Shown here piece after piece: positions 3,951-47,067 of a stretch of DNA of 64,000 nucleotides. This DNA is from Actinomycetes bacterium (GTDB lineage Bacteria > Actinomycetota > Thermoleophilia > BMS3ABIN01): assembly GCA_021791195.1 (NCBI GenBank), contig JAJYXB010000022.1, positions 80,245 through 144,244 on the forward strand, written 5' to 3'. Numbering within the stretch: position 1 is the stretch's first letter; every line of letters begins with the position of its first letter. The notes under the pieces were generated by a model. It was given only the letters and a program-made list of their open reading frames with translations, searched no databases and was not told where the DNA came from. The translations under genes were made by a program, and so were the position numbers.

Positions 3951-6184
3951 GAGCCGGGCCGCAGGCTCCGCCGCTGGCCGCTTTTCGCCTGCAGCTTTTC
4001 CAGGACGGCCCGGCGCAGCTCGGCCATCCCGGCCGCCGGGGCCGGATCGCCGGCCGGTGAATCCGCTGCTCCATCTTTCCTGCGCCGGTAACGAATCTCT
4101 TCCACCTGCCGCGACATCAGGGAGAACTCCTCCGCACTCAGCCAGTATGAAACCCGGGCGGAGAATCCCCTGATAGTCTCTTCCTCATGCCGCCTCATGC
4201 CATGCTCGTCGAGCGCGGCCACCAGGGCCAGATAATCCTTCAGCAGCGGCTCGCGCAGGAAGTCGGGGCCCAGCATGGCGGCCAGCAGTCTGCGCCGCCG
4301 CCGCCGGCGCACCGCCAGCCGGCCCAGCCGCCAGGCGGCCATGGCCGCCAGCAGGATCGCCAGACCCGCCACCACCAGCAACACCACCGGCAGCGGCCGG
4401 GAAAGATTCGCCGCCGCCGCCAGGCCGCCCGTCATGCCGCCCAGCATCGTTCCCACGGGTCCGCTGGCCAGTGCCCCGCCGATATAGGAGAAGATGCGCG
4501 CCACCGGCCAGCTGCTTTCTCCGGCGGCCGCAGCCGGACCGTCATAGCCGGGCGTGGGATCGAAGGGGACCCAGCCGGCGGTGCCAAAATAGATCTCGAC
4601 CCAGGCGTGAGCATCGCTTTCCCTGATCTCCCAGAGTCCGGTGAACGGGTTGTAGCTGCCGCCGGCGTAACCCGTGACCACCCGTGCCGGGATGCCGATG
4701 CTCCGGGCCATCACCGCCATGGCGGAGGCAAAATGCTCGCAGTAGCCGGCGCGCTGCTCGAACAGGAAATATGCCACCGCGTCCATGCCTCTGGTTTGCG
4801 GCGGCACATTCAGATCATAGGGATAATTGTCTTTCAGGTAGAGTTCGATGGCGAGCGCCTGATCGTAACGATTCTGGTAGTTCCGGGTCACCTGGCGCGC
4901 GAGGGCCTGGACCCGTTGCAGATCGGGGTCATCCGGCAGCCGGGTGTACTCGGCTGCGGGCTGCGGGTCGGCCGGGCGGGGGTAGTGGCGCAGCAGGACC
5001 GGATCGTACACCGGGGCCTCTGTCATCACCGAATAAACCGTATCGCTGGTGAGCGGAAAGGGGCTCCTGAGGCTGCCGTAGCTGTCGATCTTGATGCGGC
5101 TGGCGGGAAAATAGAGCGATACCGGCTTCCAGCTGGAGAAGATGATGTTGGGCAGATCGGATTCGATGTAAAAAGTCTCCAGCCTGCTGTTGACGTTAAG
5201 GCCGCTGGCGGCGTGTGTCTTCAGGTCCAGCGGCGGCGTATCGGTGCTCACGTCGGTCGTCTGGTCGGAGCTGATCTCCCAGCCTTTGCCGTTATAGCGG
5301 TCGAAGACGACGCCGCGGTAATAATCGGAGGTGTCGGAGCGGACCTTCATGACGATGTTGTCGCTCAGCTGGCCGCGGGCGCGCAGATCCATGTACTGGT
5401 TGAAGCCGTAGTAGGAGTTGGCATCGAACTGCGGCGGTCCCGAAAACGGACTCCCCTTGGAATATGATGGATTGTCAATCCTGCTCGTGAAATCGCCCGC
5501 GATCTGCCTGAAGCTGGACAGTGGCAGCGAATGCAGGCGCGCCTGCGTCGACTGCGGCAGCAGCAGCAGCACCGGTATGGCCACACACAGGCTCACGAAC
5601 CAGACGAGGGCGCCATAAACGAGCATCGTGACCGGCCGCGCCGGCTGCGCCGCGCTGACGTCCGCCTCCGCCTCGGATGCGTGCATGAACACCAGCGACA
5701 CCGCCGCGGCCAGGCTGAAGAGGATGAAACCGGCGGCGTACATCATGCCGGTGGACAGCACAGCGCCGGCGGCGATTAGGACCAGGCCGCTTCCCAGCGA
5801 GAACTTGAGGTCCTTGCGCGCGGGCAGGTCGAATGAATGCAGCACCTGCAGCCACAGCAGCAGTTTGATCAGCGGCAGGCGCGTGTCATACAGGCTGGCC
5901 GCCAGATCATGGAAGAACATCACCGCGGCGATGATGACCAGGAAGGAAAGGATCGCCTTCGCCGGCAGGTTCCTCTGTGCGCGCATGCGCCAGCTGAAAG
6001 CAAAACCCGCCGCGGTCAGCGCCGGCACGGCCAGCACTGTCAGCGGGCTGTAATAGCCCATCGCCAGCACGGTGATCTCGGCTGTGAAGATGCTGGCCAG
6101 CACGCTCAGCCGCAGCGGCAGGCTGTTCTCCGGCGGCCGCTTGGGATTCAGGCGGCTGAACCAGTCTAAAAGTCTGCCAGGCAT
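3947..6184 (-). CDS. transglutaminase-like membrane protein (TgpA-like: DUF3488 TM region, TGase core, DUF4129)
   Basis: YCEHFASAMAVMARSIGIPARVVTGY transglutaminase core; multi-TM N-terminus; likely start is the ATG at 6184 (MPGRLLDW), which overlaps the DUF58 gene end by 19 nt. The ORF track extends to 6430. Confidence 0.85.
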   Translation of the reverse strand: MPGRLLDWFSRLNPKRPPENSLPLRLSVLASIFTAEITVLAMGYYSPLTVLAVPALTAAGFAFSWRMRAQRNLPAKAILSFLVIIAAVMFFHDLAASLYDTRLPLIKLLLWLQVLHSFDLPARKDLKFSLGSGLVLIAAGAVLSTGMMYAAGFILFSLAAAVSLVFMHASEAEADVSAAQPARPVTMLVYGALVWFVSLCVAIPVLLLLPQSTQARLHSLPLSSFRQIAGDFTSRIDNPSYSKGSPFSGPPQFDANSYYGFNQYMDLRARGQLSDNIVMKVRSDTSDYYRGVVFDRYNGKGWEISSDQTTDVSTDTPPLDLKTHAASGLNVNSRLETFYIESDLPNIIFSSWKPVSLYFPASRIKIDSYGSLRSPFPLTSDTVYSVMTEAPVYDPVLLRHYPRPADPQPAAEYTRLPDDPDLQRVQALARQVTRNYQNRYDQALAIELYLKDNYPYDLNVPPQTRGMDAVAYFLFEQRAGYCEHFASAMAVMARSIGIPARVVTGYAGGSYNPFTGLWEIRESDAHAWVEIYFGTAGWVPFDPTPGYDGPAAAAGESSWPVARIFSYIGGALASGPVGTMLGGMTGGLAAAANLSRPLPVVLLVVAGLAILLAAMAAWRLGRLAVRRRRRRRLLAAMLGPDFLREPLLKDYLALVAALDEHGMRRHEEETIRGFSARVSYWLSAEEFSLMSRQVEEIRYRRRKDGAADSPAGDPAPAAGMAELRRAVLEKLQAKSGQRRSLRPGS

Positions 6185-14954: not shown

Positions 14955-15131
14955 GCAATATCTTCGGGGCGGGGTGGAATTCCCCACCGGCGGTCAAAGC
15001 CCGCGACCCTCGTCAAGAGGTTGATCAGGTGAAATTCCTGGGCCGACAGTCAAAGTCTGGATGGGAGAAGATATAAGCTCGAATGAGCTTGTGACGCCCT
15101 GGGATAGACGCTGCCCGGGGTTTTTTTATTC
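14955..15131 (+). promoter_or_regulatory. FMN riboswitch (RFN element) with intrinsic-terminator expression platform
   Basis: CTTCGGGGCGGGGTGGAATTCCCCACCGGCGGT...GGTGAAATTCCTGGGCCGACAGTCAAAGTCTGGATGGGAGAAG matches the RFN consensus; followed by CCCTGGG-N10-CCCGGGG hairpin and TTTTTTTATT at 15098..15127. Confidence 0.9.
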
Positions 15132-15132
15132 C

Positions 15133-16254
15133 ATGATTTCGGGGACAGACATCAGTTTCATGCAGCGGGCGCTGGACCTGGCCGATCTGGCCAGGGGCAG
15201 GACCAGCCCCAATCCCACCGTGGGCGCCGTTATCGTCAGGGATGATGACGTCATCGGCGAGGGCTATCACCGGCGCGCCGGCGCCGATCATGCCGAAGTG
15301 GCCGCGATCAGGTCGGCGGCGGGAGGCGTCGAAGGGGCCACCATTTACGTCACGCTCGAACCCTGCTGTCATACAGGCCGGACGGGTCCGTGCACGGAAG
15401 CTCTGATCAAGGCCGGCATCGCTCGGGTGCTGATCGCTTCGCTGGACCCGTCGGCGAAGGTGAATGGCAAAGGGCTCAGGCAGCTGCGCGACGCCGGCAT
15501 CGAGGTAGAGGTGCTGGACGGCGCCGTTGCGGCGCGGGCCAGGGCCCAGAACGAGGCTTTCCGCAAGCATGCCGTCACCGGGCTGCCGTTCGTCCTCTTC
15601 AAGAGCGCCATGAGCCTCGACGGCAAGATCGCTACCGCGACAGGTGATTCACGCTGGATCTCGGGCGAGGAAAGCCGCGCCGTGGTGCACGCGCTCCGGG
15701 CCGAGATGGATGCCATCGCCGTGGGCTGCGGCACCGCCGCCATCGATGATCCGATGCTGAACTGCCGGCTGCCGGGCGACTACCTGCAGCCGCTGAGGAT
15801 TGTTTTTGACTCGCAGGCCAATCTGGATCCCCGGAGCAAGCTGGTGCAGACCGCGAACGATTTCCGGACCCTGGTATTTACCGCCGGCAATGCGCCGGAC
15901 GAGCGGGTGGCGGCGCTCGAGCGGGCCGGCGTGGAGGTCAGCCGGACCGGCGGTGAAGGCCGGGTGGACGTGGGCGAGGCCCTCGCGCATCTGGGATCGA
16001 TGGATCCACCGGTGATGAGCGTGCTGCTGGAGGGCGGGCCCACGCTGGCCGCGTCGTTTGTCGAAGCCGGCTTAATCGACAAGGTGATGATGTTCGTCGC
16101 CCCCAAGCTGATCGGCGGCGAGTCGGCCAAGACGCCGGTCGAGGGCCGGGGTTTTCGCCTCGTGGGCGAAGCGGTTCCGCTCAAGCGCCTGTCGCACGTG
16201 TCGATTGGTGAGGATGTGCTGATCACCGCTTACACTTCAGAGGATGAGTGGTGA
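15133..16254 (+). CDS. ribD: bifunctional diaminohydroxyphosphoribosylaminopyrimidine deaminase / 5-amino-6-(5-phosphoribosylamino)uracil reductase
   Basis: Deaminase HAEVAA...PCxxC motif; reductase domain; start placed after the riboswitch terminator (ORF track starts at 15061, inside the riboswitch). Confidence 0.9.
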   Translation: MISGTDISFMQRALDLADLARGRTSPNPTVGAVIVRDDDVIGEGYHRRAGADHAEVAAIRSAAGGVEGATIYVTLEPCCHTGRTGPCTEALIKAGIARVLIASLDPSAKVNGKGLRQLRDAGIEVEVLDGAVAARARAQNEAFRKHAVTGLPFVLFKSAMSLDGKIATATGDSRWISGEESRAVVHALRAEMDAIAVGCGTAAIDDPMLNCRLPGDYLQPLRIVFDSQANLDPRSKLVQTANDFRTLVFTAGNAPDERVAALERAGVEVSRTGGEGRVDVGEALAHLGSMDPPVMSVLLEGGPTLAASFVEAGLIDKVMMFVAPKLIGGESAKTPVEGRGFRLVGEAVPLKRLSHVSIGEDVLITAYTSEDEW

Positions 16255-16343
16255 TGCGGCCCGCGGGCGGCGGCCGCGATCTAATGGAAGACTTTGACTG
16301 TCATGAAAAATGAACGGCACGGTAATTTGAGAGGGAACGAAAT

Positions 16344-16997
16344 ATGTTTACCGGAATAGTCGAAGAACTGGGAAAGCTGGTAAGCCTGGAGATGGGCGCC
16401 GACAGCGGCGTCATCACCATCGAGGCCGATAAGGTGCTGGAGGGCACGCGGCTGGGCGATTCCATCGCCGTCAATGGCGTCTGCCTGACGGCGCGCGCGT
16501 TCGGCAACGGCACTTTTGCCGCCGACGTGATGCCCGAGACGCTTAGAAAGAGCAACCTGGGCAACCTTAAACGTGGCAATCTTGTCAACCTGGAGCGGGC
16601 GATGACGCTCGGCGGGCGCCTGGGCGGCCACCTGATGCTCGGTCACGTGGATGCCACCGGCAAGGTCGTCTCCGTCCGGCCCGAGGGGACGGCGGTCGTC
16701 TACACGATGTTGGCGCCGGAACAGGTGCGGCGTTACATCCTGCCGCAGGGCTCGATCGGCGTCGACGGCATCAGCCTGACCGTCGCCCGGCTCGAAGGCG
16801 ACAAGTTCAGCGTCTCGCTGATCCCGCACACAGTCAGGCTGACGACGCTGGGCAACAACGGCGTCGGTTACGAGGTCAACCTCGAGGCGGATGTCATCGG
16901 CAAGTATGTGGCGCGCATGCTGGAAGGGAATCTGCCCGGGGGGCACGGCGAGGGCGGGCTGACGATCGAGAAACTGGCCGAAGGAGGATTTTTGTAA
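16344..16997 (+). CDS. ribE: riboflavin synthase alpha subunit
   Basis: MFTGIVEELG N-terminus, two lumazine-binding repeats. Confidence 0.9.
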   Translation: MFTGIVEELGKLVSLEMGADSGVITIEADKVLEGTRLGDSIAVNGVCLTARAFGNGTFAADVMPETLRKSNLGNLKRGNLVNLERAMTLGGRLGGHLMLGHVDATGKVVSVRPEGTAVVYTMLAPEQVRRYILPQGSIGVDGISLTVARLEGDKFSVSLIPHTVRLTTLGNNGVGYEVNLEADVIGKYVARMLEGNLPGGHGEGGLTIEKLAEGGFL

Positions 16998-17112
16998 TGA
17001 GCCGGGCGCGAGGATACCGCTCCGAAAGATATCCATCATCGCTTGACGTCCCTAAAGTTTTTTATGCAAGTAACTGATATGAAGTGTCAATTATTCAGAA
17101 GGAAAGGTAGTC

Positions 17113-18393
17113 ATGTCAGATTCAAACCAACAGCAGGAAGTGAAGGAATCGCCGTTCAGCTCCATCGACGAGGCGATCGCCGACATCCAGGCCGGAAAGA
17201 TCATCGTTGTCTGTGACGACGAGGACCGCGAGAACGAGGGCGACCTGACGATGGCGGCGCAGTTCGCCACGCCGGAGGCGATCAACTTCATGGCCACTCA
17301 TGGCCGCGGCCTCATCTGCCTGGCAATGACGCCGGAGAAGTGCACTGATCTGGATCTGCCGCAGATGGTGCAGAAGAACGAAGCTACCTTCAGCACCGCC
17401 TTCACCGTCTCGATCGAGGCGCGTCACGGGGTGACGACCGGCATCTCGGCGGCCGACCGCGCCCACACGATCCAGACGGCGATCAAGCCCGAAGCGCTGC
17501 CCGTGGACCTGGTGCAGCCGGGCCACGTCTTCCCGCTGCGGGCCAAGCCGGGCGGGGTGCTGGAGCGCACCGGTCAGACGGAGGCCTCGGTCGACCTGGC
17601 CAGGCTGGCCGGCCTGGAGCCCGCCGGCGTCATCTGCGAGATCATGAATGAGGACGGCACCATGGCGCGCGTCCCCGACCTGGTCCCCTACTGCAAGAAG
17701 CACAATCTGAAGATGGTCACCGTTGCCGACCTGATCAAGTACCGGCGCAAGACCGAGAAGCTGGTGCGGCGCGCCGCCGAAGCGCGGCTCCCGACCAGAT
17801 TTGGCGATTTCCGCGCCATCGGCTACGAGAGCCTGCTGGACGGCGAGCAGCACGTGGCGCTGGTCAAGGGCGATGTCGAGGGCGCCGAGAACGTGCTCGT
17901 GCGGGTGCACTCCGAGTGTCTCACCGGCGACGTTTTCGGCTCGATGCGCTGCGACTGCGGCGAGCAGCTTTATCATGCGATGCGCATGATCGAGGAGGAG
18001 GGCAAGGGCGTGCTGCTCTATCTCTCCCAGGAAGGCCGCGGCATCGGCATCCTCAACAAGCTCAAGGCCTACGAGCTGCAGGAGCGCGGCCGCGACACCG
18101 TCGAGGCCAACGAGGAGCTTGGCTTCCCGGCCGACCTGCGTGATTATGGCATCGGCGCCCAGATCCTGGTGGACCTGGGGCTGACCTCAATCCGGCAAAT
18201 GACCAACAACCCGAAGAAGATCAAGGGCCTGGAAGGATATGGGCTTAAAATCGTGGAAAGAGTGCCCATCGAGATGCCGCCGCAGTGCGAAAACGTCGCC
18301 TATCTGGCCACCAAGAAGGCCAAGATGGGGCACATCCTCCATCATCAGGATCTCCGTTATGTGGAGGAGGACCAGGAGGAAGGCCAGGTTTAG
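17113..18393 (+). CDS. ribBA: bifunctional 3,4-dihydroxy-2-butanone-4-phosphate synthase / GTP cyclohydrolase II
   Basis: DHBP synthase N-half ([11 protein letters not shown]) and GCHII C-half ([15 protein letters not shown]). Confidence 0.95.
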
Positions 18394-18468
18394 CAGCCGG
18401 GCCTGAACCGGCGGCGGCCGGTGAGCCGCCGCGCCAGACAACGGAACCGAGACAGAAAGGACCAGTTT

Positions 18469-18942
18469 ATGGCCAGTGAGTTCAAGAGTTACGAGGGAAT
18501 GCTGGACGCCAAGGGGCTGAAGTTCGGCCTGGTAGTGGCGCGTTTTAATGAATTCATCTCCACGCGCCTGCTGGACGGCGCGATCGATTGTCTCGTGCGG
18601 CACGGCGCGGGCAAGAGCGCGATCGAAGTGGCCTGGGTCCCCGGCGCCTTCGAGATCCCGCTGGTGGCGGCGAAGATGGCCGAGAGCGGCAAGTACGACG
18701 CCGTCATCTGCCTGGGCGCGGTCATCCGCGGCGGCACGCCGCACTTTGACTATGTCGCCGCAGAGGTGTCAAAGGGGATCGCCAAGGTTTCGCTTGACAG
18801 CAAGTTACCGGTGGCGATGGGTGTGCTTACCACCGACAGCATCGAGCAGGCGGTCGAGCGCGCCGGCACCAAGGCCGGCAACAAGGGCTGGCAGGCGGCG
18901 GCCGGCGCCATCGAGATGGCCAGCCTGGTGAAGAAGCTCTAG
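18469..18942 (+). CDS. ribH: 6,7-dimethyl-8-ribityllumazine synthase
   Basis: [10 protein letters not shown]...VVARFNEFI...; SD AGAAAGGA upstream of the ATG at 18469. Confidence 0.9.
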
Positions 18943-24392: not shown

Positions 24393-24418
24393 AAACCGCC
24401 TGCCGGCGGTTTTTTTAT
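24393..24418 (+). terminator. Rho-independent terminator after rpmF
   Basis: ACCGCC-TGCC-GGCGGT hairpin followed by TTTTTTT. Confidence 0.6.
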
Positions 24419-24991
24419 TCCCCGGCCTGTCACATACTGGCAACCGCCGGCAATCGGGTTAAGCGCTATTACGGTTGGCGTCATCCCTAGATATGTCGCC
24501 AGTTACGGCTACTGGCATGCGGGGCGAAAGAAATCTGAAAGCGGACGGCTTTGACAAAAAAGTCCGGAGACGCCGCAATGACGTCTCCGGACATTGTGCA
24601 AATTCGCTCCGGCGTCCACCTGTGGAGGGCGGGATGCACAGTTAGAGGGCATTGTACGATGCATGCCGTTGACCTGTGTTGGTCTCTCCTACCCGCTAGA
24701 GCAAATTATTGTGGAACGCAAAACACGCGAGCCGCTTTGCATCCCATGCCTGTCTTGACCGGAAGACGGCGCTGCTTGACAGCCGGCGGACAGGCGAAAC
24801 CACGTCTTTAATCATACTATTTGAGGTGCATTTGAACAATGAATATCCGGCATGCTAAAGTACAGGATCGCTGAACCGACATATAAGCCGCGCTTCTGCA
24901 TCCGCGGCCGCGATAACGCCAACGGGATGGGGCCGGGAAAGGGTTTCCGGCGCCGTTCGCAGAATATCTGATCAACCCGTATCCGAGGCCC

Positions 24992-26469: not shown

Positions 26470-26474
26470 AACTT

Positions 26475-26646
26475 GGGGACGTTCCTTAACTTATTAAACT
26501 TGTCAGGGTCGCCGAAAGCTAACAGGCGATTGCGCGGAAATCGGGAATATGGATGGAGCAGGCAATCGCGCCCCCGGACGGAGAAGGGAAACCGCGGCTC
26601 TCCTGCAGAGTAACGGAAAAAGTTAAATAAGTTAAGGAACGTCCCC
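26475..26646 (+). promoter_or_regulatory. structured 5' leader: perfect 21-bp inverted repeat (GGGGACGTTCCTTAACTTATT / AATAAGTTAAGGAACGTCCCC) closing a 130-nt segment; the right arm contains the SD and abuts the ATG at 26647
   Basis: Direct sequence inspection; internal GCGATTG/CAATCGC sub-stem; left arm starts 6 nt after the pfkA stop. Confidence 0.5.
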
Positions 26647-29310
26647 ATGAACATTGCCGAGGTCATAGTCGCGCACGCGAACACCGACTTCGACGGCTTT
26701 GCCGCATCGGTGGCGGCCGGCCGGCTGTATCCCGAGGCCCGCATCTGCTTCCCGGGCTCGCTTAACCGCAACGTGCGCGAGTTCTACAATCTGCACGCGG
26801 ACGAGATCGACACCGCCGACGTCTCCATGGTCGACCTGAAGCGCTTGCGCCGGCTGATCATCGTTGACACGATCCACTGCAACCGCCTGGGTGAGTTCGA
26901 GCGCGTCTGCGGCCGCGCGGACGTAGAGGTGATCGTCTTCGATCATCACCGCCTGGGCGCTGTTTCCGAGCGCCCCGATTTCGTCTCCGAAGAAAACTAT
27001 GTCCTCTCCGAGGACGGCTCGCTGGTCACCACCATGCTGAAGATCATCCATGACCGCAAGCTGGAGGTCTCGCCGCTGGAAGCGACCATCTTCGCGCTCG
27101 GCATCCACGAGGACACCGGCTCGCTGACCTATCCGACCACGACCGCGCGCGACGCCGAGGCGCTGGCGCTGTGCATGCGCCTGGGCGCCAGCCAGGCGAT
27201 GATCGTCAAGTATCTGCACAATCCTTTAAGTCCGGAGCAGCGGGAGCTGCTGCTGAAGCTGGTGGACGAGCTGGAGCCGGTGCCGGACGGCGATGTCGAG
27301 GTCTACCTGGCGGCGGTCCACAATCCGGTCTATGTAGAGGGACTCAGTGTCGTGGCGCACAAGATGCTGGACGTCACCGACTGCCAGGCGCTGCTGGTGG
27401 CGGTGGAGATGGAAGACCGTATCTTTATCGTCGGCCGCAGCAAGAGCCGCCTGCTGGATGTCGCCAAGGTGCTGGCCAGCGTCGGCGGCGGCGGCCACAG
27501 CCAGGCAGCCTCGGCAATCGTCAAGGGCCGGAGCCTGGAGCAGGTTCGCCAGACGCTGCTGGCTGCCGTCCCCGGGGTGGTCGAGGAGCCGCTGCGGGCG
27601 CGGGACATCATGTCCCAGCCGGTGCACTTCATCGACGTCCAGACCCCGATCAGGGAGGCTCTGCTGTTCTGCCAGCGCTACGGCCACAGCGGCGTCTCCA
27701 TCAGCGAGGGCGGGCGCCTGGCCGGCGTGGTGGCGCGCAAGGATCTGGACAAGGCGATGGCGCACAAGCTGGGCCATGCGCCGGTCAAGGGGATCATGTC
27801 GCGCGGCGTGGTGACGGTGGCCGAGGATGCGCCTGTGCACGAGATGCGCCGGCTGATGTCCACCAGCACCATCGGCCGCATTCCGGTGGTGCGCCGGGGG
27901 GCGGCAGGGGGTGAAATCCCGGTGGAGGATGTCGTTGGCATCGTCACCCGTACGGACATACTCCGGTCGCTGCACGGGATGGAGGCCGAAGAAACCGTTG
28001 CCGAAGTGCTGCGCACCGAGGTCAATTTCCGCGAGCGGTTGCAGGCGCGCGCCGGGCTGGCGCCGCTGCTAGGGGCCGTCCAGCGCCTGGGCGGCGATTA
28101 CCGCGGCGTGTACCTGGTGGGCGGTTTCGTGCGCGACCTGATCCTGGGGGAACCCAACTATGATGTTGACATCGCGGTGGAAGGTGATGGAATCGAGTTC
28201 GGCCGGCGGCTGGCGGCTGAGCTGGGCGGACGCGTGCGCGCCCATAGCAAGTTCAACACCGCCGTGGTCGTTGTCGAACACGCCGAGCCGCGCCTCCGGG
28301 TGGACGTCGCCACCGCGCGCACCGAATTCTACGATTACCCGGCGGCGCTGCCGACGGTGGAGCATTCCTCCATCAAGCGCGACCTCTACCGCCGCGATTT
28401 CACCATCAACGCCATGGCGGTATCGCTGACCGCGCACGATTTCGGCAAGCTGCTGGATTTCTTCGGCGGGCTCAGGGATCTGGAGGACCGGGTCATCCGC
28501 GTGCTGCACAACCTCAGCTTCATCGAAGACCCGACCCGCATCTTCCGCGCCATCCGTTACGAGAACCGCCTTGGCTTCCGGATGAACCCGCACACGCTGG
28601 GGCTCGCCCGCGGCTGCGTGGAGATGAATCTGGTGGGAGATCTCTCCTCGGCGCGGCTGCGTGACGAGCTCATCTGGTTGTTCTCCGAGCCGGAAGTGGC
28701 GCATACTGTTCTTAGGATCGGTGAGCTGGGCCTGGCGCCCTCGATCCATCCCGCACTGGCCGCTGACGCGGAGACCGCCGCCCTGGTGAAACGCGCCGAT
28801 GAGGCGGTTCGACGCTTCCGGATGCAGGACGAGATCAAGCTCTGGCGTCTACGCCTGGCCTGCCTGGCACGCAAGCTGGACGCCGGCCAGCTGGAGCTGT
28901 GGACGCAGCGTCTCAAACTCCGGCGCACGGACGCCGAGCGGGTCACCACCGGCGTTGTGCTGGCGCGCCAGGCCGCGGTGCGGCTGGCGGCCAGAGCCGG
29001 GGCTTCCCGCGCCGATATCCATGACATGCTCAAGCGGCTGCCGGGAGAGGCGCTGCTGCTGGCATTCGCCGCGGCGGCGGACGGGCGCGCGCGCGATGCT
29101 CTGGAGCTTTACCTGACGGAGCTGCGCCATATCCGGCTGTCGGTCGACGGCTCTGACCTGATCGCGGCGGGGCTGAAGCAGTCGCCGCAGCTGGGCCAGG
29201 TGCTTGCGGAGCTTAAGCGGCTGCGGATCGAAGGCCGGATCGCTGGCCGTGAGCAGGAGCTGGAGGCCGCCCGCAAACTGGCGACCCGGCTGGCCGCGCA
29301 GGAAAAATAG
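26647..29310 (+). CDS. DHH-DHHA1 phosphoesterase / tandem CBS / CCA-adding (polyA polymerase head) nucleotidyltransferase fusion protein
   Basis: DHH motif FDHHRL; DHHA1 GGGGHSQAAS; two CBS repeats; GGFVRDLILG...DVDIAV nucleotidyltransferase motif plus RNA-binding tail. Confidence 0.8.
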   Translation: MNIAEVIVAHANTDFDGFAASVAAGRLYPEARICFPGSLNRNVREFYNLHADEIDTADVSMVDLKRLRRLIIVDTIHCNRLGEFERVCGRADVEVIVFDHHRLGAVSERPDFVSEENYVLSEDGSLVTTMLKIIHDRKLEVSPLEATIFALGIHEDTGSLTYPTTTARDAEALALCMRLGASQAMIVKYLHNPLSPEQRELLLKLVDELEPVPDGDVEVYLAAVHNPVYVEGLSVVAHKMLDVTDCQALLVAVEMEDRIFIVGRSKSRLLDVAKVLASVGGGGHSQAASAIVKGRSLEQVRQTLLAAVPGVVEEPLRARDIMSQPVHFIDVQTPIREALLFCQRYGHSGVSISEGGRLAGVVARKDLDKAMAHKLGHAPVKGIMSRGVVTVAEDAPVHEMRRLMSTSTIGRIPVVRRGAAGGEIPVEDVVGIVTRTDILRSLHGMEAEETVAEVLRTEVNFRERLQARAGLAPLLGAVQRLGGDYRGVYLVGGFVRDLILGEPNYDVDIAVEGDGIEFGRRLAAELGGRVRAHSKFNTAVVVVEHAEPRLRVDVATARTEFYDYPAALPTVEHSSIKRDLYRRDFTINAMAVSLTAHDFGKLLDFFGGLRDLEDRVIRVLHNLSFIEDPTRIFRAIRYENRLGFRMNPHTLGLARGCVEMNLVGDLSSARLRDELIWLFSEPEVAHTVLRIGELGLAPSIHPALAADAETAALVKRADEAVRRFRMQDEIKLWRLRLACLARKLDAGQLELWTQRLKLRRTDAERVTTGVVLARQAAVRLAARAGASRADIHDMLKRLPGEALLLAFAAAADGRARDALELYLTELRHIRLSVDGSDLIAAGLKQSPQLGQVLAELKRLRIEGRIAGREQELEAARKLATRLAAQEK

Positions 29311-29367
29311 GAAAAATAATAATCATGGCCTGACGCAGGCCAGTACACGCAAGGCAGGATAGTTTGA

Positions 29368-30018
29368 ATGTTTACCAGTGATTTGTTGCTACAGTTTCTG
29401 ATCACGCTGCCGGCGCTGCTGATATCGATGGTGCTGCACGAGGTGTCGCACGGCTACGTGGCCTACCGCCTGGGTGACCGTACGGCGAGGCAGCGGGGGC
29501 GGCTCTCGCTCAACCCGCTCAAGCACCTGGACAAGCTCGGCTCGCTGATGCTGTGCATCACCTATTTCGGCTCCGGCGGCAGCATGCTGTTCGGCTGGGC
29601 CAAGCCGGTGCCGATCAATCCCGGCAATTTCAAGGATCCCCAGCGGGGGATGATGTGGGTGGGCGCTGCCGGCCCGGCTGCCAATCTGCTGATCGCCATC
29701 GCCAGCGCGCTGGCGCTCAAGATGGCCTATCCCTATCCGGTGGACAGCAACCTGTTCATGGCGCTGTTCCTGGTGTTCCGGCTCAACCTGATCCTGATGG
29801 TGTTCAACCTCATCCCGGTGCCGCCGCTGGACGGCTCGCGCATCGTGGGCGGTTTTCTCAGCCGGCAGGCGTACGTGCGCTGGATCCAGATGGACCAGTA
29901 CGGGATGATGTTCGTCATGCTGCTGATGTTCGTGCTGATCGGCCCCCTGGGTGCGGGTTTCTCCAGCTTCTTCGCCAGCCTCTACCACATCTTCCTGCCT
30001 GCCTCCTACGGATTTTAG
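29368..30018 (+). CDS. site-2 protease family (peptidase M50B-like) membrane metalloprotease
   Basis: HEVSHG (HExxH) in TM1, LNPLKHLD motif, multi-TM. Confidence 0.75.
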   Translation: MFTSDLLLQFLITLPALLISMVLHEVSHGYVAYRLGDRTARQRGRLSLNPLKHLDKLGSLMLCITYFGSGGSMLFGWAKPVPINPGNFKDPQRGMMWVGAAGPAANLLIAIASALALKMAYPYPVDSNLFMALFLVFRLNLILMVFNLIPVPPLDGSRIVGGFLSRQAYVRWIQMDQYGMMFVMLLMFVLIGPLGAGFSSFFASLYHIFLPASYGF

Positions 30019-30103
30019 GGCGGGGACGTTGCTTTCCTAAAGTTCCTATTTTAGAGGGTAGGGCGGGGACGTTGCTTTCCTAAAGTTCCTGTTTTAGAGG
30101 GAA
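30018..30103. repeat. two tandem direct 43-bp repeats (GGGCGGGGACGTTGCTTTCCTAAAGTTCCTRTTTTAGAGGG)
   Basis: Copies at 30018..30060 and 30061..30103 with one mismatch; they begin at the stop codon of the M50 protease gene. Confidence 0.85.
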
Positions 30104-30250
30104 GGAACGCTCTTGGCTGCAGTTTCCTGTTATTGAATGGATCCAGCGTCGGGCGGTTTTCGCACAGAGGAACGTTCTCGGACGTCCACGGCGAATCCGG
30201 CAGATCTCCAGCAGATCACACTGCCGCCCATTAGTTTCCCCTTATATTTA

Positions 30251-30330
30251 GGAACTTTAGGAAAGCAACGTCCCTGGTTTGGGACGCGGTTTTGGAACTT
30301 TAGGAAAGCAACGTCCCCGGTTTGGGACAG
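30251..30330. repeat. two inverted copies of the same repeat (GGAACTTTAGGAAAGCAACGTCCC), each followed by GTCCC-N6-GGGAC palindromes
   Basis: 30251..30274 and 30295..30319 are reverse complements of the 30018/30061 repeats; palindromes CGTCCCTGGTTTGGGACG (30269..30286) and GTCCCCGGTTTGGGAC (30313..30328). Confidence 0.85.
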
Positions 30331-30377
30331 GCCCCGGAGGGGGAAATCAGTCGTGGTGGCGAGTTCTGGAGCGGATC

Positions 30378-33300
30378 ATGGGCGATTGCATGGAGGGGTT
30401 TCCGGAGGCCGGCGAGCGGCTGTTTCGCATACTGGCATTTGACTGGGACGGCACCGCGGTGCCGGATCGCCATGCCGATGCCCGCCGGGTGGCCGCGGTG
30501 CTTCAGCAGCTGCTGAAGCTGGACGTGCTGGTGGCCGTCATCACCGGCACCAATTTCGAGAACATCGACCGGCAGCTTTGCTCCCTGATCCACGGTACCC
30601 ACAAGCGGCGGCTTTACGTATGCGCCAACCGTGGTTCGGAAGTTTTCGGCTTCGACATCGATGGCAATGTCACGCTGCTTTTCAGGCGGGAAGCGACACC
30701 GGACGAGAACAGGCTGCTGGACCGCATCGCCCAGGCGGTCAAAAGTGACATCGAGAGCCTGTCCAGCGTCGGCATCAACATCATCTACGACCGGCTCAAC
30801 CGCCGCAAGGTCGACCTGATCCCCGAATGGCCAGATCCGCCGAAGTCACGCATCGATGAACTGATGGCCAGAACCGAGGCGCGCCTGAAGCAGGGCGGCT
30901 ACAGCGGCGGCATCCACGGCGCCTACGAGCTGACGCTGCATTACGCCCGGCGCTTCGGCCTGAAAAACGCGCGCGTCACCAGCGACGTCAAGCACATCGA
31001 GGTGGGCCTCACCGACAAATCCGACTCGATCCGCTGGGTCATCAGCCAGCTGTGCTACCGGCGCAATATCCCCTTCCGGAACATGCTGGTGGGAGGGGAT
31101 GAGTTCGGTAATGTGGCCGGTTTCGAGGGCAGCGATTCGCACATGATCGTGCCCGAGCTCGGCGGAGATTCCTATATCGTGTCGGTGGGGAAGGAGCCTG
31201 ACGGCGTGCCGCCGGGGGTAACCCACCTGCCCGGCGGGCCCGACTGTTTCATCAGCCTGCTGGAGCGGCAGGTCGCGCTGCATCGGCTGATGCTGCCCAG
31301 CGAGGATGTGACGGCGCTGCTGGTGGAGAACGGCTTCAATCCGCTCCGGGAACGCGAGGTCGAGTCGCTGCTGGCTGTCGGCAACGGTTATCTCGGCACC
31401 CGTGGCTCGCTCGAGGAGCAGGATCCGGCGTCCAGCGCCGCCACGCTGCTGGCCGGCGTTTATGACCGGACGAGCAGGGAATCGATCGAGGAGCTTGTGG
31501 TCGTTCCTGACTGGCTGTATACGCGTATCTACGTCAATAACATCCAGCTGACCGCCGGGCGCCAGAATCTGCTGGAGCACCGGCGGGTGCTGGACATGTC
31601 CAAGGGCATGCTTTTCCGCGAGTGGCGCCACCGGGACCGGGAGAACCGCGTTACCCGCATCCGTTTCATCCGGTTCGCCTCGCTGGCGGATCCGCATCTG
31701 CTGGTGGAGCGGCTGGTGGTGGTTCCGGAGAATTACAGCGGGAAGCTGCGGGTGGAGACCGGGCTCAGGATCTGCGAGGGTTGCCCGCCCGAGCTGACCG
31801 TGACGGCCGCGGCCGGCGCCGAGCCGCCGGAAGATGAAGCGGCCAGGCGGGCGGCAGGGAGCGCGTCAGCCGGCGCGGAGCCGGAAAGCGGCGTCCGTGT
31901 CAGCGCCACCACGGTCCATACCGGCATCGCCCTGGCCCAGCGGCAGCAGAGCCGCCCCGCGGCCGGCTTCATCAACATGCGCCATTCCACTGCTGCCGGC
32001 GGTTTTGGCGCTATCGAGCGCTGGCGCTGGCGGGCGGCGGCGGGACAGCCGGTCACCATCGACAAATACGTGAGCGTCTTCACTTCGCGCGAGAGTACGG
32101 CGCCGGACCGCGAGGCGGCCGCGGCCACGGAGCGGCTGGCCGGGCTGGGCTTCCGGCCGCTTGCCCTGCAGCAGATCGGCGCCTGGCGCGACCGGCTGGC
32201 AACGGCGGCGGTCACCGTGGACGACAATGACAGCCAGCAATGGCTCAACTTCGCCCTTTATCACCTCATCAGCGCCGGGAATCCCCATGACGAGCGCAGC
32301 TCGATCAGCGCCCGCGCGCTTACCGGCTCCATTTACAAGGGACATATATTCTGGGACGCGGAGATGTTTATCCTGCCATTCTTCATCTTCACGCATCCGC
32401 CGACCGCGCGGGCGATGCTGCTGTACCGTTTCCATACGCTGGCGGCCGCCCGCGAGAATGCGCTGCGAAAGGGATATGCGGGCGCGCTGTTTGCCTGGGA
32501 AGCGACCGGCGGCGGTGAAGACATGACTCCCGCCGCCGTCGTCGATCCCCGGGGCGAGATCGTGCCGGTGCTGTCGGGCAAGCTGGAGCATCACATCAGC
32601 GCCGCGGTCGCCTGGGGCGCCTGGTCTTACTGGAATGCCAGCGGCGATGAAGGGTTCCTGGTGGGCGCCGGCGCCGAGCTGCTGATCGAAACGGCGCGCT
32701 TCTGGGCCAGCCGGGTCACCGAGGTCGATGGCAGTTTCCACATCCTCGGAGTCGAGGGCCCCGATGAATATCACGATGAAGGCGTCGATGACAACTATTA
32801 CACCAACGCCATGGCCCGCTGGAATCTGCGGCGGGCGGCGGAAGTGGTAGAGCGGCTGAAGCGTCTGCATCCGGATGAGTGGCAGCTGCTTGCCGCCAAG
32901 CTCGGCTTCGACATCGGCGAGCCCCAGCGGTGGCTGCGCGTGGCCGGCGGCATGTTCATGGGCGCCGCGGACACCGGCTCCGGCAAGAGCGCCTCGGCGG
33001 CCGGCGCGGGCGCCGCGCCGGTGGAGCAGTTTCGCGGCTACTTCGAGCTGGAGGACATCGACGTCTCCGCCTTCGGGTCCCATGTGGGACCGCTGGACGT
33101 TTTGCTCGGTCATGAACGCACGGTCGCCTCGCAGGTCGTCAAGCAGGCCGATGTGGTGATGGCGCTCTACCTGCTGGAAGAGGAGCTCGGCGCGGGCGCC
33201 ATCGAAGCCAGCTTCGATTACTACGAACCGCGAACGGTGCACGGCAGCTCGCTCTCACCCGCCATTCATGGGCTGGTGGCCGCCCGCCTGGGCCGGCTGG

Positions 33301-33725
33301 AAAACGCATGGAGCTATTTCAGCCGCGCCGCCCGCATCGACCTGGCCCACGGCAACGCCGCCGGCGGCATCCACGTCGCCGCGCTCGGCGGCCTGTGGCA
33401 GCAGGTTGTCATGGGCTTTGCCGGGGTCAGGACCAGCAGGGAGGGGGTCTTCGTCTATCCGCACCTGCCGGAGCGGTGGGGGACGATGGCTTTCACGCTG
33501 GCATGGCGCGGGCTGCAGCTCCGCTTCGCGGCCGAGCGCGGCCGCCGGCTGAGACTTGAGCTTGCCGGCGAGGGCGAGGCGATGGTGGGAATAAAAGGTT
33601 TGGAGCTGCAGGCAATGACTGGAGGCCGGAGTTACACCGCGTTCTGGCAGGGTGGCCGCTGGCAGGCCTTCTCGCCGGCAGAGGGCGCCGTAACGGCCGC
33701 CGGCATCCAGGAGGACAAGGCATGA
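30378..33725 (+). CDS. OtsB1-like fusion protein: N-terminal HAD-type trehalose-phosphatase-like domain + glycoside hydrolase family 65 (N-terminal, catalytic, C-terminal domains)
   Basis: FDWDGT HAD motif I; GH65 signatures (HIFWDAEMFILPFF, general-acid region); start moved to the ATG at 30378, downstream of the repeat array (ORF track 30279). Confidence 0.8.
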   Translation: MGDCMEGFPEAGERLFRILAFDWDGTAVPDRHADARRVAAVLQQLLKLDVLVAVITGTNFENIDRQLCSLIHGTHKRRLYVCANRGSEVFGFDIDGNVTLLFRREATPDENRLLDRIAQAVKSDIESLSSVGINIIYDRLNRRKVDLIPEWPDPPKSRIDELMARTEARLKQGGYSGGIHGAYELTLHYARRFGLKNARVTSDVKHIEVGLTDKSDSIRWVISQLCYRRNIPFRNMLVGGDEFGNVAGFEGSDSHMIVPELGGDSYIVSVGKEPDGVPPGVTHLPGGPDCFISLLERQVALHRLMLPSEDVTALLVENGFNPLREREVESLLAVGNGYLGTRGSLEEQDPASSAATLLAGVYDRTSRESIEELVVVPDWLYTRIYVNNIQLTAGRQNLLEHRRVLDMSKGMLFREWRHRDRENRVTRIRFIRFASLADPHLLVERLVVVPENYSGKLRVETGLRICEGCPPELTVTAAAGAEPPEDEAARRAAGSASAGAEPESGVRVSATTVHTGIALAQRQQSRPAAGFINMRHSTAAGGFGAIERWRWRAAAGQPVTIDKYVSVFTSRESTAPDREAAAATERLAGLGFRPLALQQIGAWRDRLATAAVTVDDNDSQQWLNFALYHLISAGNPHDERSSISARALTGSIYKGHIFWDAEMFILPFFIFTHPPTARAMLLYRFHTLAAARENALRKGYAGALFAWEATGGGEDMTPAAVVDPRGEIVPVLSGKLEHHISAAVAWGAWSYWNASGDEGFLVGAGAELLIETARFWASRVTEVDGSFHILGVEGPDEYHDEGVDDNYYTNAMARWNLRRAAEVVERLKRLHPDEWQLLAAKLGFDIGEPQRWLRVAGGMFMGAADTGSGKSASAAGAGAAPVEQFRGYFELEDIDVSAFGSHVGPLDVLLGHERTVASQVVKQADVVMALYLLEEELGAGAIEASFDYYEPRTVHGSSLSPAIHGLVAARLGRLENAWSYFSRAARIDLAHGNAAGGIHVAALGGLWQQVVMGFAGVRTSREGVFVYPHLPERWGTMAFTLAWRGLQLRFAAERGRRLRLELAGEGEAMVGIKGLELQAMTGGRSYTAFWQGGRWQAFSPAEGAVTAAGIQEDKA

Positions 33726-34582
33726 ACACCAACCGGAAGAAACCAGCGGGCAACGGGGCGGCCGTGGTCCTGCCGCTGGACGGCTCGCGCACGGCCGTGC
33801 GCGCTTTCGGCGCCGCCCGTGCGGTCACGCGGATGCTGGGCGCCCGCCTGCACGTGATCTACGTCAGCGAGAAGCCGGTGCCGGCGGCGGAGCTGCCGCG
33901 GCTGCTCCATATCGAGGCCGGAGGCGGCCGCATCCGGTTCCATCAGATTTCCGGCGAGACCGTCAGCGCCATCATCCGCTTTGCTGTCGGAGTGGACGCG
34001 AGCATGATCGTCATGTCCAGCCACGGCAGGACGCACAATACGCGGCAGATGGCCGGCGGCGTGGCCATGCGCCTGATCCAGCACACCGACATCCCGGTGA
34101 TGGTGATCCGGCCGCGCAAACAGGTGCCCGGCGCTGACTGGCGCCCGCGCCGCATGCTGGTGCCTCATGACGGCTCGCCTGTCACCGCCGGCGAAGTGGA
34201 GCAGATATTCAACCTGGCTTGTGCGATGGAGGTGGATATCGACGTGCTGCATGTGGGCATGATCGGCGCCCGGCCGCCGGTGGGGGTGGGGGCCATGGAC
34301 GGCCCGCGCTACCTGGACCGGCCGCATTATGACTGGCCCGGCTGGGCGGACGAGTTCCTGCGCCGGTTTGCCGCGCGCCCCGGTGAATCCAAGGTGCGGC
34401 TGATCTACCAACCCGGTGAGATCGTCGATGCGGCGCTCGATTACGCCGCCCAGAACCGCGACGACGTGATCGCGCTGATTTGGCACGGGATGCTGGGAGG
34501 CAAGCGGGCGGCCAGCGTCAAGGGGATCCTGATGAACGCCGAGGTGCCGGTGCTGCTGAAGCGGATCCGCGGCGGGACTTAG
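33722..34582 (+). CDS. universal stress protein (tandem UspA domains)
   Basis: Two Usp-like halves (LHVIYV..., VLHV...PVLL); start overlaps the stop of the preceding gene. Confidence 0.85.
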   Translation: MNTNRKKPAGNGAAVVLPLDGSRTAVRAFGAARAVTRMLGARLHVIYVSEKPVPAAELPRLLHIEAGGGRIRFHQISGETVSAIIRFAVGVDASMIVMSSHGRTHNTRQMAGGVAMRLIQHTDIPVMVIRPRKQVPGADWRPRRMLVPHDGSPVTAGEVEQIFNLACAMEVDIDVLHVGMIGARPPVGVGAMDGPRYLDRPHYDWPGWADEFLRRFAARPGESKVRLIYQPGEIVDAALDYAAQNRDDVIALIWHGMLGGKRAASVKGILMNAEVPVLLKRIRGGT

Positions 34583-38456: not shown

Positions 38457-38526
38457 GATACGACATTCTTTTCAGCCGATCCTGAGGCCGGCGTTACGCA
38501 GGATGACGATCTGCTGCGGATCGTTT

Positions 38527-38548
38527 GGAAAGGAACGTCCCCTGGTTT
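38527..38548 (+). repeat. single copy of the GGAAAGGAACGTCCCCTGGTTT motif in the corA 5' leader
   Basis: Identical 12-mer core AGGAACGTCCCC to 26635..26646; lies 19 nt upstream of the corA ATG. Confidence 0.6.
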
Positions 38549-38566
38549 CCCGATCCAAGGAACAGC

Positions 38567-46715: not shown

Positions 46716-47067
46716 TCCCCGGGGCGAGCTGCCGGTTGTGCCCTGGACATACCCGGGGCAGGCTGCCAGCCCGGGACAAGGCCTGCCGCGGCCGCGTGTC
46801 GCCACCACAGATAACGGCGCGCATCAACGTGGGGAAAGCCGCCGTGTTTTCATGGGGAAAGCCTCCCTGTTTTGGATCGGACCGCCATGCTGGTTTGACC
46901 GGCGCCGTGTTGGGTATGAAAAGTTCGGTGTGTCGGCGCCGGTCAGGGTGGTGCAGGATACTTTGGCTTTTCCGCGAATCACGTCGTTATCGCAGCTAAA
47001 GAACAGTTAAATCTGGCGCGCAGTGTTTGATGGTTCAATTCACAAGGAATGCAAGGAGTGGCTTACC

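Follow-up and report, generated by a model that had tools for sequence, protein, structure and literature searches.

A strain-variable inverted-repeat array between M50 protease and GH65 genes is probably one copy of a small non-coding repeat family in an uncultured Thermoleophilia species

Mycobacterial variable-number tandem repeats were reportedly described as MIRU by Supply et al. 1997; their tandem units of 40-100 bp lie in intercistronic positions of actinobacterial operons, vary in copy number among strains, and are multiples of 3 nt with small ORFs that overlap the stop and start codons of their neighbours. REP hairpins near a stop codon are said, by Liang, Rudd and Deutscher 2015, to be able to reduce expression of the upstream gene, and REPs are imperfect palindromes. 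The RAYT-mobilised REPINs occur as inverted pairs and as singlets, are extragenic, leave no target-site duplication and persist vertically (PMC3116915; PMC3337134). The Correia elements (CREE) of Neisseria are non-coding intergenic elements of ~100-300 bp with ~26-bp terminal inverted repeats, which are expected to form a hairpin if co-transcribed; RNase III cuts or protects hairpins at these inverted repeats, with changes in the expression of neighbouring genes, and the elements also have TA target duplications, contain an IHF site and exist in hundreds of near-identical copies (PMC2649163; PMC10969869).

Here, we analysed a window of 64,000 nucleotides from an uncultured Thermoleophilia species, in which a repeat array, E2, separates a protease gene from a gene for a putative phosphorylase. 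Our preferred reading, to which we assign a probability of roughly 0.55, is that E2 represents one member of a family of small, non-coding inverted-repeat elements that is specific to this lineage and MITE/REPIN-like in character, and that the arms of E2 were duplicated in place. As it stands, this family adds to a well-known class of repeat elements and is not a new kind of system. The genes around E2 are as follows.

29368..30018, + strand: Peptidase_M50 gene (site-2 metalloprotease; domain search), upstream neighbour of E2
30378..33725, + strand: gene for a GH65 phosphorylase-domain protein with a HAD-like N-terminus (domain search), downstream neighbour of E2
33722-34582, + strand: Usp gene, next after the GH65 gene

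These assignments agree with the first-pass annotation made from the sequence alone, which had placed an M50 gene upstream and an OtsB1-like gene with a Usp gene downstream. The surrounding cluster is one of housekeeping genes, all on the + strand (recG, rsmD, coaD, yceD, rpmF, PFK, a DHH-CBS CCA-adding enzyme, M50, GH65 and Usp). The N-terminal 300 aa of the GH65 protein match HAD-family hydrolases, at ~50-59% to stand-alone HAD proteins, without close relatives, and a metagenome search with the M50 protein returned relatives at only 44%. The ORFs scanned contained housekeeping genes only, with no transposase, cas, recombinase, regulator or transcription-factor domain among them. Neither strand between 29300 and 30700 yielded a sigma-70-like promoter in a scan with a consensus that fits actinobacterial promoters poorly. 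Rfam returned no family at the gathering threshold over the whole window, nor at E <= 1 for E2 and for the related element E1 described below. E2 itself is made up of the following parts.

30016..30058, + strand: forward unit F1, 43 nt, core at 30021-30046 (TRF period 43, 2.1 copies)
30059..30101, + strand: forward unit F2, 43 nt, 98% identical to F1, core at 30064-30089
30102..30246, no strand: E2 spacer, non-coding, ~145 nt between the unit arrays
30247..30289, - strand: reverse unit R1, core at 30249-30274, repeat copy at 30247-30285, hairpin GTCCC-TGGTTT-GGGAC at 30270-30285
30290..30328, - strand: reverse unit R2, core at 30294-30319, hairpin GTCCC-CGGTTT-GGGAC at 30313-30328

The element spans 313 nt between the two annotated genes. 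Two tandem 43-nt direct repeats starting at 30018 had been proposed previously; the tandem pair is real, but it starts 2 nt earlier, at 30016, where the first three bases of F1 (30016-30018) are the TAG stop codon of the M50 gene. The two reverse-complement copies reported beyond the spacer are likewise present, offset from each other by 43 nt and in the opposite orientation to F1 and F2, and the repeat search paired the two sides into five inverted pairs (I1-I5) with arms of 25-26 nt that are 100% complementary. All four units have a perfect core of 24-26 nt in common, and four matches to the 24-mer GGGACGTTGCTTTCCTAAAGTTCC were counted (two on each strand, allowing <=3 mismatches), compared with none in 100 shuffles. 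Units on the same side are 95-98% identical with their linkers included, and the linkers of 17-18 nt, which hardly differ within one side, are unrelated between the two. The GTCCC-N6-GGGAC palindromes noted on the reverse copies were recovered, and this hairpin is found only beside R1 and R2. Both palindromes claimed for the spacer were also located, namely GGAACGTTC (30169-30177, or GAACGTTC at 30170-30177) and GGACGTCC (30180-30187). The spacer further contains two degenerate R-type ends, S1 (GGGAAGGAACGCTCTTGG, 30099-30116, overlapping the end of F2) and S2 (AGAGGAACGTTCTCGG, 30166-30181); the motif AGGAACG has just 12 occurrences in the window when both strands are counted, of which two fall in the S1/S2 region. 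The distance from the end of the R2 core to the ATG of the GH65 gene (30378) is 58 nt. With two units per side, near-identical linkers, sides inverted relative to each other and no cas domain among the ORFs scanned, E2 is not a CRISPR array, as the first-pass annotation had concluded.

The ends of E2 recur at two further loci in the window.

26474..26647, no strand: E1, inverted pair with arms at 26474-26501 and 26620-26647 (28 nt each, 96% complementary, 118 nt apart)
38518..38542, + strand: E3, solo end GGATCGTTTGGAAAGGAACGTCCCC, 24 nt before the corA ATG (38567)

Together, the four ends of E2, the two of E1 and that of E3 make seven ends in the window, for which we derived a family consensus of ~25 nt, GGGGACGTTSCTTTCCWAAMGWTCC. 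A scan with this consensus recovered the four E2 ends and E3 at 2-3 mismatches, the E1 ends being more distant. The outermost 13 nt are common to all family members, and the window contains seven copies of the terminal 13-mer GGGGACGTTSCTT, compared with 0.13 expected. E1 (arm sequence TGGGGACGTTCCTTAACTT...) shares with E2 only these terminal 13 nt, GGGGACGTTCCTT, beyond which the arms differ. Across the family, interiors are unrelated, and the inner arms differ between members while matching within each member. No inverted partner of E3 was found. E3 is identical at 23/24 positions to the R arm of an element in a sister-lineage genome (L016, see below); ends of 24 nt that are so nearly identical, at separate loci of two genomes, cannot arise without some process of copying. 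The shared outer 13 nt, the member-matched inner arms, the unrelated interiors and the solo end form a pattern that looks like one mobilising enzyme recognising terminal repeats across sub-families.

All three family loci lie within 12 kb of the ~75 kb sampled, and no further copies were present in ~11 kb of additional flank taken from conspecific contigs (~5 kb on the right and ~6 kb on the left). This clustering is unexplained. Collections of genomes, metagenomes and viral contigs, which are evidently without this species, gave 0 matches to the exact E2-type core, and a BLAST search of E2 against plasmids and phages returned nothing meaningful.

We compared the two junctions, whose spacers in the window measure 359 nt (M50-GH65) and 177 nt (PFK-CCA), with those of relatives.

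L016: M50 97% identical in amino acids, four-fold-site divergence 10%; one arm pair, CGGGGACGTTCCTTTCCTAACG and its complement, ~85 nt apart
L015: M50 81%; M50-GH65 spacer of 71 nt without the array
L011: M50 67%; M50-GH65 spacer of 57 nt without the array; an unrelated GTTTCC/GGAAAC-rich inverted repeat between PFK and CCA
L017: M50 71%; between M50 and GH65, 217 nt containing two unrelated palindromic hairpins of 15 nt; between PFK and CCA, 8 nt
L025: PFK 91%; an unrelated inverted repeat at the PFK-CCA junction
L024: PFK 96%, four-fold-site divergence 17.7%; an orthologous E1

The array is present in 11/11 conspecific sequences, and L016 has a different, one-pair element at the corresponding site. 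Both arms of the L016 element differ from the window arms at matching positions, that is, by concerted changes. Its spacer has no detectable similarity to that of the window, while identity is 91.5% over the 59 nt downstream. Neutral divergence of 10% would leave an orthologous spacer alignable, so the interior in L016 was replaced or the site was hit twice. At the other junction, L024 and the window agree at 38/38 positions in the outer 19 nt of the two E1 arms, and at 97/134 in the remainder of the element (28% diverged). If these sites changed at the four-fold rate, all 38 would stay the same with a probability of ~6e-4, and those of the F arm alone with one of ~0.025. Conservation of the E1 arms at the orthologous site exceeds the expectation for a decaying selfish insert, and the family ends are either constrained or homogenised. 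The comparisons show that this lineage acquired the family in steps, E1 before E2.

No target-site duplication was visible at E1, E2 or the L016 element on direct reading of the flanks. Local alignment of the empty site of L015 to the arms or the flank was no better than that of shuffles (p = 0.28-0.73), the site being too diverged for the junctions to be read; a scenario in which a native R arm gave rise to the F arm by inverted copying was rejected, as the alignment of this empty site to the arms did not rise above shuffles.

The window and 10 contigs encoding an identical M50 protein formed a conspecific set of 11 sequences. Six structural alleles of E2 occur among them, with 2-3 forward and 1-2 reverse units.

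Window and L002-L005: 2 forward, 2 reverse units, no small duplication
L010: 2 forward, 2 reverse units, 14-nt duplication CGTCCCCGGTTTGG
L001: 2 forward, 2 reverse units, 14-nt duplication and a 10-nt duplication at the left end
L006 (with one core SNP), L008 and L009: 2 forward, 1 reverse unit, 14-nt duplication
L007: 3 forward, 1 reverse unit, 14-nt duplication

R1 is the unit missing in L006-L009, forward and reverse copy numbers vary independently of each other, and the small 10-nt and 14-nt duplications are situated at the outer ends of E2. Because the units vary in number between strains and each side is near-identical including its linkers, the layout of two plus two units is an unstable local amplification and not a fixed design. 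Within the species, 1/102 core columns of E2 are variable compared with 15/226 non-core columns (p = 0.027). E1 shows no copy-number change among conspecific strains. The alleles are not an assembly artefact: the 86-nt array is shorter than the k-mer of 141 that is evident from contig names beginning with k141_, and separate assemblies contain the same alleles. As a source of the two-plus-two layout, insertion of one element into another was also considered and set aside, since tandem slippage better fits the near-identical linkers within a side and the range of one to three units among strains. An rve-family IS is present in strain L005, and its ends are unrelated to the family.

The 43-nt period is identical on both sides of E2 despite the unrelated linkers and the independently varying copy numbers, which is unexplained.

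Folding predictions gave -169.5 kcal/mol for E2 (z = -8.75), and z-scores of -4.8 for E1 and -6.5 for its orthologue in L024. The E2 spacer alone folds no better than shuffles (z = -0.10), so the structure signal of E2 lies wholly in the arms. E2 is most likely transcribed, given that the flanking genes are co-oriented and closely spaced, and its transcript would form a long hairpin with two perfect 25-26-bp helices and the insert looped out. Such a hairpin, beginning 3-5 nt past the M50 stop codon, would provide a double-stranded RNA substrate as well as a 3' barrier, and by analogy with Correia and REP elements it could alter the processing, stability or read-through of the mRNA. As for its history, comparison with relatives having spacers of 57-71 nt shows that a single-pair element entered a short M50-GH65 spacer after the split from them. 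Each arm would then have been duplicated locally as a 43-nt tandem unit, probably by slippage or unequal exchange, giving rise to the unstable variable-number repeat whose alleles differ among the strains observed.

The arms may instead have been kept for the benefit of the host, with the stem setting the stop codon beside the start codon, masking or unmasking an SD-like R arm, or serving as an RNase III or stability determinant, and with a mobile origin that is secondary or absent. This is a minor possibility. In its favour, E1 fills the PFK-CCA-enzyme junction flush with both genes: the F arm starts 5 nt past the PFK stop codon, the last base of the R arm is the A of the CCA-enzyme ATG, and AAGGAAC is located 8 nt upstream of this ATG within the stem. 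Folding of E1 would bring stop and start to ~5 nt from each other, compared with 8 nt in the empty site of L017. The unchanged outer 19 bp of both E1 arms, against 28% divergence elsewhere in the element, the concerted arm changes between the window and L016, and the presence of unrelated inverted repeats at the same junctions in other lineages are all consistent with selection on a stem, although complementarity of the arms is equally expected of terminal repeats bound by a transposase. In E2, however, the R arms are positioned 58-101 nt upstream of the GH65 ATG, whose GGAG is outside the element, so masking of the ribosome-binding site is impossible there; moreover, unit copy number drifts freely among strains, E3 as a solo end cannot form a stem, and near-identical 24-nt ends at unrelated loci call for copying and not for local selection alone. 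We find it quite doubtful that the R arms mimic the Shine-Dalgarno sequence and the F arms the anti-SD, such that a domesticated, host-kept family colonising stop-to-start junctions of operons would loop out the insert by its stem, set the upstream stop codon next to the downstream start and gate the ribosome-binding site in a form of long-range translational coupling; if this were true, the conservation of the outer E1 arms across species would be a signature of host selection.

The geometry of E2, with perfect 26-nt inverted repeats around a non-coding segment of 150-250 nt just upstream of an operon, resembles that of an inverton (we used the family definition of PMC11602134 for this comparison). 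An unlinked recombinase would then bind the 24-26-nt core, flipping the spacer upstream of GH65-Usp through the inverted sites and adding or removing 43-nt units through the direct ones. The gain and loss of such units between strains fits direct recombination sites, and an 8-8-8 reading of the core gives outer arms that match at 6/8 in the E2 and E3/L016 variants, which is only marginally beyond chance in a freely chosen frame; the E1 arms, however, are non-palindromic in this frame. Directly repeated sites should resolve to one copy, but two or three persist, and the assemblies show a single spacer orientation in 11/11 sequences for E2 and in 10/10 for E1. The ORFs scanned include no recombinase, the interval 29300-30700 has no sigma-70-like promoter on either strand (again by a consensus poorly suited to actinobacteria), and E1 adjoins the housekeeping tRNA CCA-adding enzyme, an unlikely target of phase variation. 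Taken together, inversion is a very unlikely function of the array. The least probable of the readings is the operator array with DNA looping that the first-pass annotation had offered, in which four phased sites (43 bp being about four helical turns) and the central palindromes would loop the DNA to control GH65-Usp, with E1 and E3 in the same regulon. The spacing of the four sites is indeed the same on each side, with symmetry about position 30170, the three loci within 12 kb are upstream of + strand genes, and within the species the core varies less than the sequence around it. Against this, the perfect identity over 24-26 nt with near-identical linkers indicates recent duplication and not site selection, the number of sites differs among strains, the core is long and lacks symmetry, the ORFs scanned include no regulator gene, and the element is missing in relatives with the same gene order. 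Nor is looping supported by L016, where at only ~10% neutral divergence the palindromes and the entire spacer have been replaced, or by the spacer of the window, which has no significant fold.

Returning to the inverted-repeat family, the MITE-like reading that the first-pass annotation had placed beside the operator array holds in part. The ends recur at two other window loci and in a sister genome and are absent from distant relatives, but there is no target-site duplication at the elements read, no autonomous partner or cognate transposase among the ORFs scanned, and no set of near-identical dispersed copies in the ~75 kb sampled. E2 has the terminal inverted repeats, the small size, the lack of coding capacity and the presence or absence at orthologous sites that define MITEs, and it shows no flanking target-site duplication. 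In contrast to a MITE burst of near-identical copies, E1 shares just 13 nt with E2 and the interiors are unrelated. E2 is therefore MITE-like in a broad sense, with ends shared by three loci in the ~75 kb sampled. CREE correspond to E2 in size range, non-coding nature, length of the terminal repeats, intergenic position and expected hairpin, whereas none of the TA duplications, the IHF site and the abundance of near-identical copies was seen here and there is no sequence similarity; unrelated interiors and, in E2, tandem-duplicated arms are special to the present family. The REPIN layout is matched, with E1 and the L016 element as single pairs and E3 as a singlet, together with the extragenic position, the lack of target-site duplications and vertical persistence. 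Unlike REPs, the family core contains no internal palindrome (at best 6/8 in the 8-8-8 frame), and the E1 and E2 arms diverge after the first 13 nt. MIRU are similar to E2 in unit length, setting and strain variability, but the units of E2 are 43 nt long, non-coding and arranged in two opposed arrays.

Three further candidates were rejected. Tn3-family ends have a GGGG terminus, but neither a 5-bp duplication nor an inner TAAG motif was found. A DosR-like box is GGGAC-N4-GTCCC, and the half-sites of E2 are in the wrong arrangement and spacing. An ECF-sigma promoter (GGAAC ... CGTC) does not fit, as the spacing is 13 nt and not 16-17.

Thermoleophilia are known mostly from metagenomes and their small repeat families are hardly described; one such family now has a defined consensus. 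The hypervariable 43-nt repeat locus could serve to distinguish conspecific strains in metagenomes. Should the conservation of the E1 arms reflect host selection, the family would offer a tractable case of a repeat element co-opted for intercistronic RNA control. Sister lineages carry unrelated hairpin-forming inserts at the same operon junctions, which have thus been taken repeatedly by inserts of this kind.

At the junction between the PFK and CCA-enzyme genes, which in the window is filled by the inverted pair E1 (26474-26647), two related Thermoleophilia MAGs carry an inverted repeat of another kind, with many GTTTCC/GGAAAC motifs (L011 3149-3316; L025 about 4660-4900). The L025 junction contains four tandem copies of CGAAACG, with a promoter-like TTGACA-16-TATAAG between the inverted-repeat arms. 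Unrelated hairpin-forming inserts therefore occupy the same PFK-CCA junction across lineages. In a lineage with 92% PFK identity, the contig (L027 1789-1817) stops 29 nt past the PFK stop codon, in ...GAGGGGGGACGAG, where a further arm of the E1 type may begin and the repeat may have broken the assembly.

The spacer between the M50 and GH65 genes, which holds the studied array E2 in the window, was found in a locus with 71% M50 identity (L017) to contain a pair of palindromic hairpins, each 15 nt long and facing opposite ways:

L017 5640-5654, hairpin CAGGCTTTTAGCCTG
L017 5699-5713, hairpin CAGGCTAAAAGCCTG

The pair resembles a doublet of the REPIN type. It has no relationship to the GGGGACGTT family, to which E1 and E2 belong.

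The R-type (reverse-complement) ends of that family are Shine-Dalgarno-like, reading GGAAAGGAAC / AAGGAAC (window 26631-26646 and 38527-38542), and the forward arms consequently resemble the 16S rRNA 3' end. In E1 this end sits 8 nt upstream of the CCA-enzyme ATG; the corA ATG has a separate AAGGAAC 4 nt upstream (38557-38563).

In one conspecific strain, an rve-family transposase gene (an IS) adjoins recG (L005 1-260), a place occupied by rpmB in the other strains. The IS end, which bears two copies of AACATTTTTnnnTGAGGCAAC, shows no relation to the E2 repeat.

Three further elements were observed in the window:

14956-15076, + strand, FMN riboswitch (RF00050, 117.8 bits)
24393-24460, small inverted repeat AAACCGCCTGCCGGCGGTT / AACCGCCGGCAATCGGGTT
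46830-46873, tandem 23-nt repeat TGGGGAAAGCCGCCCTGTTTTCA (1.9 copies)

Directly downstream of the riboswitch lies the ribD / ribBA / lumazine-synthase operon (15061-18942). The inverted repeat, with 19-nt arms that are 84% complementary and 30 nt apart, is located in a non-coding stretch upstream of the PFK gene. The tandem repeat, in the spacer between the DUF302 and 6-phosphogluconate dehydrogenase genes, might serve as a binding site or might simply be one more small repeat.
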